Below, piece by piece: positions 5,279 through 30,408 of a stretch of 32,000 bases of DNA. The DNA is taken from the NCBI GenBank assembly GCA_038889235.1, contig JAWAHN010000001.1, positions 1,078,803 to 1,110,802 on the forward strand, given 5' to 3'. The notes below the pieces were generated by a model. That model was not told the DNA's origin. It searched no databases and saw only the letters and a list, made by a program, of their open reading frames with translations. Position 1 is the stretch's first letter. Each line of letters opens with the position of its first letter. This stretch comes from Candidatus Jordarchaeales archaeon. Its GTDB lineage: Archaea; Asgardarchaeota; Jordiarchaeia; Jordiarchaeales; Freyrarchaeaceae. Both the position numbers and the translations under genes were made by a program.

Positions 5279-5385
5279 TGGTGGGCGGGCCAGGATTCGA
5301 ACCTGGGACCTCCGCCGTGTGAGGGCGGCTTCTCGCCCCTAAGTGAACCTTTCAGAGGGCGTCATAACCGCTAGACTACCCGCCC
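5279..5385 (-). tRNA. tRNA-Val(CAC) with a 31-nt non-canonical intron (best fit 25/26, 5330-5360); CCA encoded
   Basis: Minus strand: acceptor GGGCGGG/CCCGCCC-ACCA, anticodon arm CCGCC-CTCACAC-GGCGG, T arm CCAGG-TTCGAAT-CCTGG. Removing 31 nt gives a 76-nt tRNA. Confidence 0.93.
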
Positions 5386-9518: not shown

Positions 9519-9611
9519 GGGCCCCTAGCTCAGCCTGGTAGAGCTTAGAGCGCTAAAAGCACCCGGTTTGCACCCGGGAGGCCGCGGGTTCAAATCCCGC
9601 GGGGTCCACCA
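9519..9611 (+). tRNA. tRNA-Ala(TGC) with a 16-nt intron at 22/23 (9542-9557); CCA encoded
   Basis: Acceptor GGGCCCC/GGGGTCC with the G3:U70 Ala identity pair, anticodon arm CCCGG-TTTGCAC-CCGGG, T arm GCGGG-TTCAAAT-CCCGC. The intron interrupts the D stem. Confidence 0.94.
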
Positions 9612-26662: not shown

Positions 26663-26840
26663 TGGGGGAACACCTCCCCGCAAACGCCTACCATGGCTTT
26701 TTTTATTAACGACGCTTGCTCAAGTTACCGTTTATCTTTACAGCAGCCGAATACGAGCCGTTTGAACACTCAACCCCCTTCTATATAAATTTTCTAGCCA
26801 GCAATAGTTTGCTTGAACCTCAAGGGGGTAACAGTCAAAA

Positions 26841-26857
26841 GGGAAAAGCTTTATATT
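26841..26857 (+). promoter_or_regulatory. BRE/TATA promoter of the permuted 5S rRNA precursor
   Basis: GGGAAAAGC-TTTATATT ending 24 nt before the 5' arm at 26881. Confidence 0.75.
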
Positions 26858-26880
26858 CGCTTTTTTGGTTGATAATTCCT

Positions 26881-27038
26881 GCTGGGCGCCACGGCGTGAA
26901 AGTCAAGCCCGCATGCGATTCGGCGAGTACTGCTGTGCGGGAGCCAGCGGGAAAGCCGAATGCTGGCGCTACGGCGCCGGCCATAGCATGCGGGGATATA
27001 CCCGTTCCCATTCCGAACACGGATCCGTGGCGTCCAGC
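26881..27038 (+). rRNA. rrf: Circularly permuted 5S rRNA gene: 5' arm 26881-26900, 5S 3' half 26901-26969, UACG linker 26970-26973, 5S 5' half 26974-27023, 3' arm 27024-27038
   Basis: GCCATAGC...ACCCGTTCCCATTCCGAACACGGA (5' half) lies downstream of AGTCAAGCCC...GAGTACTG...GGGAAAGCCGAA (3' half). Helices I-V can all be formed. Confidence 0.95.
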
Positions 27039-27043
27039 ATGTG

Positions 27044-27059
27044 CTTTTCTTCTTGTTTT
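27044..27059 (+). terminator. Oligo-T terminator after the 5S precursor
   Basis: CTTTTCTTCTTGTTTT immediately after the 3' arm. Confidence 0.6.
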
Positions 27060-27126
27060 CCAAGGTAACTTTAATACAGGGTACCTATCCTTCTTTTTCT
27101 GTGAAGTGTTCGTTGGGGTTGTATAT

Positions 27127-28008
27127 ATGACAAAGCCCAGGCTTTACATAGATGAGAGCAGTCCTCCTATATCCGATAACCTCTACGAAAAGATAGCCGC
27201 GCACAGGAAGCTTTACAGGAAGCTTGTTTTCTCCGGCAAGGCTGTTAAGCGTCTTAGGGGGATTTTGCCCTCTTCAGAATTGGTGAGGATGCTCAGGGGG
27301 GGCGGGGGGAAGCTTAGGCGCTTCGATATAATGATCGAGTTGTATTGTGACGTTGAGACTGAAAGTAGAGTTAAGTCTCTGTACGACGAAGTGTGTAGCA
27401 CGTACCCGCCTCAAAAGTCGTCTATTAGTCTTGCGTCAGAAGGCGAGGAGCCTGCCCCCCTGAGGCTCGGGTTGAGCTGGGAAGACGTCTCGTTCGATGC
27501 TTGGGCACTTATAGAGCGTTTTTACAGCGTCATAGAGGAACCATTCTACGTTAACTTCGAATTCGAAGACGACGAGAAGGTGGTGTCCGCCGTAAATCTC
27601 TCAGTTCCCTTCGATGAGGAAAGGAGGCAGTTCTACCTCGTGGAGCTTGTCACCCCGTTCAGGGTGAAGTATCCTAGTGGGGAAGAAAGGTTACTGGGCA
27701 AGCTTTCGTCGCTTGTGGAGGAGGTAACGAGCAACCCAAATGTGACCCCCGAGCTTTTTGTGATCGGTCGAGGCGGCATGTGGAAGCCGCTGATAACCGT
27801 CGGCTGGTCTTTTAACGATGGCCGCTTACTCGTGAAGGTTCCAGAGTGGAATGGTAAGGGTGGAATAGAGTTCATCTTGGACCCCATTAACGGCAAGGTT
27901 CAACTGATCAAGGGAGATCTTAAGGTTGAAAAGGACGGTAAGCTGGGGAACGTGTCGCTCGATGCCGTTCAGTTTTTCGAGCTGGGGGGAGATGAGCTCT
28001 CAAGTTAG
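27127..28008 (+). CDS. Hypothetical protein (293 aa)
   Basis: ATG 27127 (MTKPRLYIDE) opens a long ORF with protein-like composition. The upstream part of the ORF-track call overlaps the 5S gene and is not considered coding. Confidence 0.7.
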   Translation: MTKPRLYIDESSPPISDNLYEKIAAHRKLYRKLVFSGKAVKRLRGILPSSELVRMLRGGGGKLRRFDIMIELYCDVETESRVKSLYDEVCSTYPPQKSSISLASEGEEPAPLRLGLSWEDVSFDAWALIERFYSVIEEPFYVNFEFEDDEKVVSAVNLSVPFDEERRQFYLVELVTPFRVKYPSGEERLLGKLSSLVEEVTSNPNVTPELFVIGRGGMWKPLITVGWSFNDGRLLVKVPEWNGKGGIEFILDPINGKVQLIKGDLKVEKDGKLGNVSLDAVQFFELGGDELSS

Positions 28009-28587: not shown

Positions 28588-30408
28588 TTGTCGCTTAGAC
28601 TGGAAAACATCGCCCGCCTTTACAACAAGCTCTTTACCCTCCCCTCCTCCCCTCTGCTACTATCGCTAGACATACTGGTCCACGCGGCCCTAGGAGCGCT
28701 CTTCTTCTTACTAATGGTTCCTCTCCACGGGTTAACAGTGGTCATGGACGGTGTGGCGTGGGGGCTTACATCGCTACTGCCCGCCTCAGCCGCTTCATGC
28801 CTGCTTTCATACATCGTAATTGGGAGGGAAGGGGTGAAGACGCTAAACTTAAGGCGTCTTACTGGGCTTGCAATGTTCTCCACGTTCTTTTGGGGTGTTC
28901 CCGCCGTTCTCGGTGTAGCGCTACGTAGCTGGGTGCCGGCAGCAGCCAGCTTAGGGTTGGCGTTCGGTGTAGCCTTAATGTCTTTCGCCAGAATGCTTAC
29001 AATCGAAGGTGTCCTCCCCCTAAGCTTTGCGAGGTCGTTTGCAGCGTCCTTAACACACCCCCTCCTCCTCATCGCTTTCCTCTTTTTCTCGAAGCTTGTC
29101 CCTTTGTCCATTTCTCTCGCCGGTAAACTTGTGGTCGTATGCGTGACCTTCACGCTCCTAGCACACTTCTACTTACTACTCATAGATGAAGCCGTCAGGC
29201 AGGAGTTGGGCATAGGAGGGTTACGCCTACTCCGCGGCTTCATGGCTGAATGGCTTTCGGATAACCCCCAACTACTAGAGGAGGCACTTGCCGAGATAGG
29301 CTCCGTGGAGGAACATAAGGTATTAGTGTTAAGCTTCACGCATCGTGATGACGTCGCCGCATCTTTAATTGTGCCAATGGTCCACCCGGGTCCCTTCAGA
29401 AAGGTTGGGGGGGCTACACTACCCTACATGGTCTCCAAATTGTTTGAGGAGCGGGTAGGCGGCGTAGCAGGCGTGGCTCACGGAGCTTCTACACATGCTC
29501 AGAACCCTGTTTCAAGGAGCGAGTCTGTTAAGCTGGCTGAGGAGGTCATTAGAGAAACCCTCTCCGGCAACTTTAAACTTGGTGTTCCGGTGAGCCCGCT
29601 GGTTCAAGCAAGCCGGGGGGGTGTGAGGGTAGGCTGTCAGCTTTTCGGTGAGCTGGCCTTGTTCACGGTAAGCCTTAAACCATGCGGCTACGACGACGTG
29701 CACCCGAGTGTGCTCGCGGAGCTATCGAGGGAGCTAGCGGGTGAGTGGGGTGGGGAATTTTTCTTGGTAGACGCTCACAGTGCCAGCCCGGGTCTCCTAG
29801 AACTAGACCCTCTAACTCCCGAGTCAGAGTTGACTAGGGAAATAATTGACGCAGCAAGGGAGGCGCTGAGGGAAGCTAAGAGACTTGCACTTCACAGTAA
29901 AGTTAGAGTTGGAGGAGGGCGGGCGAGCGTTGGAAACTTTGGGGTGAAAGAGGGGGTTGCGAGCGGCGGCGTCTTTTCACTCATAGTAGAGGTTGGCGGC
30001 AGCTTTGCCTGCTACGTGATCGTCGACGGGAACAACATGGTTCCCGGCCTTAGGGAAGAGGTGGAGCGGAGGGTGAAGGGTCTAGGAATCCAAGCGGTTG
30101 AAGTGATGACTAGCGATAGCCACGAGGCTAACGCGGTCTCCCTCAGCGAGCGCGGCTCTAACCCCATAGGACTCTCAGTCCCCTGGGACGCCGTGTTCGA
30201 AGCCGTACTCGAGTCCGTTGAAGCTGCAAAGCACCAGTTGAAGGAGGCCGAGCCTAAATACTTCATAAAGGAGGTTGCGTTGAAAGTGATTGGGGAGAGC
30301 TCCATGGAAAAGCTTTCACGATCAATCAGAAATGCGGCTCTCCTGGCGAGAAGAGCCATTATAATTCCGATTTTGTCGCTACTGGGGGTTTTTCTGCTCG
30401 CCTTCTAG
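28588..30408 (+). CDS. DUF2070 (COG3356) family membrane protein
   Basis: About 6 N-terminal TM segments, then VHPGPFRKVGG, HGASTH, VDAHS, DGNNM and TSDSH motifs. Confidence 0.85.
   Translation: MSLRLENIARLYNKLFTLPSSPLLLSLDILVHAALGALFFLLMVPLHGLTVVMDGVAWGLTSLLPASAASCLLSYIVIGREGVKTLNLRRLTGLAMFSTFFWGVPAVLGVALRSWVPAAASLGLAFGVALMSFARMLTIEGVLPLSFARSFAASLTHPLLLIAFLFFSKLVPLSISLAGKLVVVCVTFTLLAHFYLLLIDEAVRQELGIGGLRLLRGFMAEWLSDNPQLLEEALAEIGSVEEHKVLVLSFTHRDDVAASLIVPMVHPGPFRKVGGATLPYMVSKLFEERVGGVAGVAHGASTHAQNPVSRSESVKLAEEVIRETLSGNFKLGVPVSPLVQASRGGVRVGCQLFGELALFTVSLKPCGYDDVHPSVLAELSRELAGEWGGEFFLVDAHSASPGLLELDPLTPESELTREIIDAAREALREAKRLALHSKVRVGGGRASVGNFGVKEGVASGGVFSLIVEVGGSFACYVIVDGNNMVPGLREEVERRVKGLGIQAVEVMTSDSHEANAVSLSERGSNPIGLSVPWDAVFEAVLESVEAAKHQLKEAEPKYFIKEVALKVIGESSMEKLSRSIRNAALLARRAIIIPILSLLGVFLLAF

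Follow-up and report, generated by a model that had tools for sequence, protein, structure and literature searches.

How can a 5S rRNA be made from a gene whose two parts stand in swapped order? The question is raised by positions 26901-27023 of a 32,000-nt stretch of DNA (hereafter the window, in whose positions all coordinates are given), which comprises positions 1,078,803 to 1,110,802 of contig JAWAHN010000001.1 of a Candidatus Jordarchaeales archaeon.

A permuted 5S rRNA gene and its surroundings

The 123 nt between 26901 and 27023 are those of a circularly permuted 5S rRNA, in the order 3' part, helix I cap and 5' part, all on the plus strand. The 3' part (26901-26969) comprises the loop B side, the 3' strand of helix II, helices IV/V with loop E and the 3' strand of helix I, as placed by the Rfam model (positions ~50-120), by nhmmer (model positions 52-121) and by the consensus fold. 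It is followed by a UACG tetraloop (26970-26973), recognized from the sequence and the folds, which caps helix I by joining what are ordinarily the free 3' and 5' ends of 5S rRNA, and then by the 5' part (26974-27023), which comprises the 5' strand of helix I, loop A, the 5' strand of helix II, helix III and loop C (nhmmer model positions 5-52; Rfam model positions 27-51 at 27000-27024). Helix I of the ring is 8 bp long and closed by the UACG loop (GGCGC-UACG-GCGCC).

The Rfam model RF00001 has no match at its gathering score (38 bits) in the window or in the genome. Run permissively on the genomic order, it finds two sub-threshold pieces of 21.5 and 19.3 bits (cut-off 38) in swapped order, with the 3' two-thirds of the model at ~26899-26971 and model positions 27-51 at 27000-27024; the gene is missed in the genomic sequence because it is permuted. 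A hidden Markov model (HMM) of canonical 5S rRNA was built from 43 distinct archaeal genes, 8 of them from Asgard relatives and the others collinear genes from metagenome contigs. Against the genomic order this model also aligns in two pieces (nhmmer), positions 52-121 at 26900-26969 with 32.7 bits and positions 5-52 at 26975-27023 with 39.4 bits. With the joined ring, entered as two consecutive copies, as the target, the result is a single gapless match of 88.8 bits, which extends from model position 6 to 121 across the junction CACGGA^AGUCAAG. Linking 27023 to 26901 restores a gapless canonical 5S rRNA, including the conserved CGGAAGU where helix III meets loop B, and the predicted ring junction reads CACGGA^AGUCAAGCC, i.e., ...CCGAACACGGA^AGUCAAGCCCGC... 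When folded as a circle, the ring adopts the three-way, three-helix shape of 5S rRNA, in agreement with the consensus fold. This is the sole 5S-like locus, in single copy, of a genome that is 95% complete in 8 contigs. Because the gene order is permuted, a normal 5S rRNA would be obtainable from it only by excision and ligation.

Upstream of the gene lies an archaeal promoter (26841-26857, plus strand) with a purine-rich BRE-like element at 26841-26849 and the TATA box TTTATATT at 26850-26857, the latter ~27 nt upstream of the base of the stem that encloses the gene; the relatives carry a AAAGCTTTATATT or AAATATTTATATT box at the same distance. The spacing between TATA box and start is roughly constant in archaea, from which transcription would begin near 26880. 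Past the stem, a T-rich stretch at 27045-27059 (plus strand), with TTTT at 27045-27048 and 27056-27059, is likely to be an archaeal terminator, and T-runs are found 3' of the stem in the relatives as well. The locus is flanked by a thiolase gene on the minus strand and by an open reading frame (ORF) that starts at 27127, and no 16S or 23S rRNA gene is found next to it within the annotated part of the window.

The downstream neighbor (27127-28008, plus strand) is a 293-aa ORF with no Pfam match, and no contigs that encode it, as strain variants would, were found on record; farther downstream, 28588-30408 (plus strand) encodes a DUF2070 membrane protein (369 bits). A 430-aa open frame at 26716-28008 (plus strand) extends across the 5S locus from end to end and on into the downstream gene, whose ATG is at 27127; the upstream portion of this frame is spurious. 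Of the six reading frames of the ring (123 nt), four are uninterrupted by a stop codon over the full circle. Such open frames, through the locus and around the ring, are a hazard for gene callers.

The processing stem and its conservation

The gene is enclosed by an outer processing stem whose 5' arm ("5' exon") is at 26881-26894 and whose 3' arm ("3' exon") is at 27025-27038 (both plus strand). Its 14 bp with one G-U pair, as described in the first-pass annotation, can be read directly from the sequence, from G26881-C27038 to G26894-C27025 with the G.U pair at 26886/27033, and U26880-A27039 adds a fifteenth pair. Inside the stem, CGUG at 26895-26898, which lies outside the 5S rRNA, pairs with CACG at 27018-27021, which in the mature fold overlaps the 3' strand of helix III; together they form the central 4-bp helix of a BHB-like motif. 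Between the central and outer helices, GAU at 27022-27024 forms a true bulge, with a predicted cut (GA|U) after 27023, and AAA at 26899-26901 occupies the symmetric position on the opposite strand, with a predicted cut (AA|A) after 26900. Every one of these elements is present as first claimed, and the motif contains the 3-nt bulge beside the central helix of which the definition in PMC4731332 asks for at least one (two for the strict motif). The inner helix h' is absent, as had also been noted: G26902 and A27017 are mismatched, and just U-A and C-G pairs are possible beyond them. The missing helix makes the motif a relaxed one (BHL) that falls short of the strict hBHBh' form, and it would leave the 5' cut site in an open loop.

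Cuts after the second base of each 3-nt element would release 26901-27023, exactly the 123 nt bounded by the junction to which 5S homology points, so the agreement reported in the first-pass annotation holds. The same product would result if both cuts were shifted by one base in the 5' direction; homology thus fixes the product, not the phosphodiester bonds that are cut. Ligation of the flanks would yield, as first read from the sequence, a 14-bp hairpin with the 7-nt loop CGUGAAU. In an unbiased scan, which considers any pair of cut sites with 4/4 central pairs and takes the longest outer stem, exactly the predicted site is picked, with 15 outer pairs against 6 for the runner-up. None of 300 dinucleotide shuffles reaches 15 outer pairs (maximum 11, mean 5.2).

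A DNA search of 40 relatives returned equally permuted (collinear) matches in several families, and the unbiased scan was repeated on 31 related loci from 15 Asgard families. One geometry is found throughout: the outer stem has 8-16 uninterrupted pairs, each strand carries a 3-nt element, and the central helix has 4/4 pairs in 23 of the 31 loci and 3/4 pairs in the other 8. The 5' element is AAA, AGA or AAG at every locus; the 3' bulge is GAU, GAA, AAA or AAU. Two registers occur. Register 1, which is used in the window, has CGUG/CACG as its central helix; its cut elements are AA|A, replaced by AG|A in two loci, and GA|N. In register 2, CUGG, CCGA, CCGG or CAGA pairs with NCGG on the 5S side (CCUG in a locus of family f5), and the cut elements are AA|G and, opposite it, AA|A, for which one locus has AA|U. 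The outside strand changes from CGUG to one of these four when the register or the 5S-side strand is a different one, and each register rebuilds the conserved CGGAAGY. Since both do so, the strand outside the 5S rRNA follows the strand inside it.

The outer stem also covaries. The anchored tables choose the best-pairing site at each locus and so favor pairing, a bias from which the agreement with the 5S junction and the count in the fixed columns of alignment A3 (15 sequences) are free; in A3, 9 of the 10 pairs tested show changes on both sides. Paired cells amount to 93% in this alignment and drop to 24-54% if the partner is displaced by 1-3 columns; in 500 shuffles the covariation score of the real alignment is never attained. 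Within the genus, arms that are otherwise identical differ by two double compensatory changes (G-C to A-U and C-G to U-A). Covariation of the arms across relatives, which the first-pass annotation had named as a check on its model, is thereby borne out, with arms, central helix and 3-nt elements kept through compensatory changes; conservation of arms and bulges in 31 loci is also the opposite of what had been named as evidence against it. A chance stem was rejected as an explanation on the basis of the shuffle controls, the conservation and the covariation. Another reading is an ordinary processing or stability stem that is served by other nucleases and resembles a BHB incidentally, which would suit both the absence of h' and the finding, described below, that the BHB helix is not part of the minimum-energy fold. 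We nevertheless consider such a stem very unlikely: the 4-nt strand outside the gene tracks the 5S-side strand and the register over 31 loci with at least 3/4 pairs in each, the 3-nt spacing is invariant, and the permuted order would yield no canonical 5S rRNA without ligation at exactly these sites.

In the Rfam alignment and in the consensus fold, the 3' strand of helix III consists of ACG at 27019-27021 followed by G27022. Because CACG shares bases with that helix, the BHB helix and helix III are mutually exclusive, and the refolding conflict anticipated in the first-pass annotation is real, with the BHB conformer ~2 kcal/mol above the minimum (ViennaRNA; 2.1 kcal/mol at 37 C and 1.6 kcal/mol at 70 C). 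Its pair probabilities are 0.04-0.10, i.e., those of a minority conformer, and the RNAalifold consensus also favors helix III over the BHB helix. Judged from these models, it is plausible that the enzyme captures an accessible minority BHB conformer and that refolding occurs after ligation.

Splicing enzymes and the predicted ring

Two EndA paralogs, of 196 and 195 aa, are encoded in the genome. The 196-aa protein has the Tyr/His/Lys triad and is closest to the enzymes of Aeropyrum, Pyrobaculum and Sulfolobus (3p1z_B, 3ajv_B, 2zyz_B and 2cv8), and the 195-aa protein keeps Tyr and Lys and has Ala where the EndA of M. jannaschii has His (EHS vs. VAK). Typing of the EndA subunits, also proposed with the original model, thus gives the catalytic-plus-structural pattern of the heterotetrameric family, from which we infer that the two proteins assemble into an enzyme of the heterotetramer type. 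It is this family that has the most relaxed recognition of BHB motifs (Plagens et al., 2015; PMC4731332). RtcB is encoded as well (600 bits).

Two tRNA genes of the window contain inserts at non-canonical positions, which fit an EndA of broad specificity. The tRNA at 5282-5385 (minus strand) reads CUCACAC in its anticodon loop (Val, CAC), and its CCA end is encoded. An insert of ~30 nt separates its D-arm from its anticodon stem, which is not a canonical place for an intron; the Rfam model can be aligned only if the D-arm is skipped, and ARAGORN misses the gene. At 9519-9611 (plus strand), ARAGORN calls a tRNA-Leu(UAA); with G3.U70 in its acceptor stem and the anticodon loop UUUGCAC, the gene looks like a tRNA-Ala(UGC) whose D-arm and anticodon stem are set apart by an insert of ~16 nt.

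We propose that a transcript of ~170 nt, which has a TATA box of its own upstream and would run from near 26880 to the T-runs past 27045, folds its arms and CGUG/CACG into a relaxed BHB (BHL) motif and that a splicing endonuclease of the heterotetramer type would cut it after 26900 and 27023. RtcB would then join the 2',3'-cyclic phosphate of A27023 to the 5'-OH of A26901, and the product would be a covalently closed 5S rRNA of 123 nt with a UACG-capped helix I and a junction that rebuilds CGGAAGU. After ligation, CACG would quit the external CGUG and complete helix III. The flanks may also be ligated, giving the 14-bp hairpin as a by-product with the junction CACGGCGUGAA^UCCGUGG, and the ring would most likely be the form that is incorporated in the 50S subunit. 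Taken as a whole, this pathway of relaxed-BHB cleavage, RtcB ligation and use of a closed 123-nt 5S ring in the 50S subunit is in our judgment quite probable, and the interpretation given in the first-pass annotation is to that extent supported.

Cleavage, ligation, circularity and the ribosomal use of the ring are what we infer here, and from sequence alone a ring, a nicked molecule and a ring re-opened later look alike. The ring might be an intermediate only, to be re-opened in or near the helix I cap into an ordinary linear 5S rRNA, just as the circular pre-16S and pre-23S rRNAs of archaea are generally thought to be re-linearized before assembly (PMC12918454), and the cap does sit at the position of the normal 5S ends. 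This course seems unlikely to us, for the cap is a stable UNCG-type tetraloop whose counterparts in the relatives vary freely in sequence and length, from 4-nt loops to extended hairpins, and show no further processing motif that is conserved; nor can another BHB be seen; circular 23S rRNA has been reported within mature archaeal ribosomes (PMC12918454); and engineered ribosomes function with a helix I that is closed by a tetraloop (PMC7283268). A BHB that is cut and left unligated would instead give a linear permuted (nicked) 5S rRNA as the working molecule, as has been proposed for some organelle genomes (PMC4267664), with helices I and II possibly keeping both parts together. We regard that outcome as distinctly unlikely, since RtcB, which the genome encodes, naturally takes the ends left by EndA as its substrates, and since excised BHB introns and the permuted SRP RNA become circular (PMC4731332). 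A nick would moreover leave helix III and loop C held by a single strand, which is unfavorable in a hot-spring organism, and the exact restoration of CGGAAGU in two cut registers suggests selection on the joined sequence. We therefore favor the ring as the end product, because of its RtcB-compatible ends, the nature of its cap and the two ribosomal precedents just cited.

Searches for traces of the ring were also made. A lineage-specific pattern, with the cap side and the ligated junction on one contig, has no match among metagenome contigs, in which the RNA of this lineage may be absent. With a broader cap-side and junction pattern, 45 metagenome contigs were retrieved, all of them DNA contigs with ordinary collinear 5S genes of other archaea. 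Ring-contig peptides in two of the four open frames gave no candidates in a protein collection that may lack RNA-derived data from this lineage. A loose pattern scan of genome contigs was discarded: the matches listed were almost all from high-GC bacteria and apparently due to chance, and a Thermofilum match lay in unrelated sequence.

Distribution in the phylum and comparison with known systems

The genome encodes a eukaryote-like actin (464 bits) and two Snf7/ESCRT-III genes, which fits its Asgard assignment. RF00001 exceeds its threshold in just 8 of 41 genomes, and many of the others show an adjacent weak pair of matches. The permuted gene and its arms were captured together in a covariance model (R1), which is ready for use in annotating permuted 5S genes and was searched over 151 genomes of the phylum. 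Strong matches (E <= ~1e-6, nearly all full-length) were obtained in 89 of them, from 20 of 27 families and including single-contig genomes without an over-threshold canonical 5S. The 14 weak matches are in families f12 and f16, and in the two genomes compared (G020 and G028) they fall on the ordinary collinear 5S genes; the 26 genomes of family f7 have no R1 match, and its sampled members carry canonical 5S. The permuted form is thus the majority state in this sample, and the canonical lineages are patchy; canonical 5S in f7, f10, f12 and f16 makes the distribution of the permuted form over the phylum patchy as well. Collinear 5S genes above the Rfam threshold occur in f7, f12 and f16 (at least two genomes each) and in one genome of f10, where no strong permuted match is found (e.g., L189-L196).

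This distribution bears on a further explanation, namely that the locus is a decayed or rearranged 5S pseudogene and that the working 5S gene lies in the unassembled 5% of the genome, for which a 95% complete assembly in 8 contigs leaves room. Such a pseudogene is hardly credible, given that the locus has its own conserved promoter and T-run, that the permuted order is kept with high scores in the genomes just described, single-contig ones included, and that covariation is seen in all helices: the RNAalifold consensus of 15 permuted genes contains helices I, II, III and IV/V, with compensatory changes in 36 of 50 pairs. Conservation, covariation and the shuffle controls led us to reject it. 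Returning to the ring, and somewhat more cautiously than for the window itself, we consider it likely that this lineage and most of the sampled Asgard families have a closed-ring 5S rRNA in the ribosome, whose biogenesis would obligatorily need the tRNA-splicing endonuclease and RtcB and in which the switch between CGUG and helix III would couple ligation to folding.

Some loci depart from the 123-nt form. In two single-contig genomes of family f13 (L198 of G021 and L203 of G031), the predicted ring is 152-153 nt long, with ~30 extra bases right after the junction that end in a second CGUGAGAGUUAAG-like stretch; a duplicated cut site or an intron nested in the ring could account for them. A third f13 genome (G041) has the plain 123-nt form. 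The loci of family f5 have predicted rings of ~151 nt and a central helix of 3/4 pairs. Two matches to the permuted-5S model each are found in G034, G076, G013 and G086 (f5), and four in G110 (f25), three of the latter at contig ends.

Circular intermediates from permuted genes have precedents. The permuted tRNA genes of Cyanidioschyzon merolae, a eukaryotic host, also pass through a circular intermediate formed at a BHB-like motif, and this circle is then re-opened to give the mature ends. No permuted or circular archaeal 5S rRNA was found in a full-text search of the literature, nor was a description of closed-ring maturation of any cellular 5S rRNA, and the only permuted 5S rRNA in the literature searched is organellar (Valach et al., 2014, NAR; PMC4267664). 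As in the window, the native ends of the organellar molecule are closed and the new ends lie elsewhere, but no BHB or EndA/RtcB pathway is invoked for it and its product is presumed to be linear. An engineered permuted 5S rRNA of E. coli (PMC7283268) also has its native ends joined by a tetraloop and keeps ribosome function; unlike the predicted ring, it is artificial and fused into 23S rRNA, has its new ends in loop C or D and never exists as a free ring.

Among archaeal rRNAs, BHB-flanked circular pre-16S and pre-23S intermediates are known, as are circular or permuted 23S rRNAs in ribosomes (PMC12918454; PMC7758197; bioRxiv 10.64898/2026.03.23.713588). They share with the permuted 5S a processing stem with a BHB, cleavage by EndA and circularization of an rRNA, which for the 5S is predicted. 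Their genes are collinear, and circularization is not needed for the order of the sequence, whereas the 5S gene is permuted and its ligation would be obligatory. The 5S rRNA, unlike 16S and 23S rRNAs, has been described as not processed via circularization (PMC12918454). The 5S genes of closed Heimdallarchaeum genomes "could not be predicted" (PMC8813620), and a permuted order would explain such unpredicted 5S genes in closed Asgard genomes.

The closest precedent is the permuted SRP RNA of Thermoproteus tenax and T. uzoniensis, in which a BHB is cut by the heterotetrameric EndA and the RNA is circularized (Plagens et al., 2015, eLife; PMC4731332). Both are structured non-coding RNAs with swapped halves, capped native ends and a leader/trailer BHB at the new termini; in both, the host has an EndA of the heterotetramer type and RtcB as the presumed ligase, circularization restores or would restore the fold, and the gene was missed by standard annotation. 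The differences lie in the molecule, a 5S rRNA here, in its spread, which here takes in most of the families sampled in a phylum and for the SRP RNA a few species, and in the evidence, in that cleavage and circularity of the SRP RNA are experimental and the permuted 5S is known from its sequence. 5S rRNA is a universal component of the ribosome that is described as linear, and an obligatorily spliced and probably circular 5S would be a new form of rRNA, in the archaeal group that is closest to eukaryotes. If the proposed pathway is true, ribosome assembly in these archaea is tied to the splicing machinery, and BHB-dependent circularization of a permuted RNA gene, as in Thermoproteus, would extend to a universal rRNA across much of a phylum.
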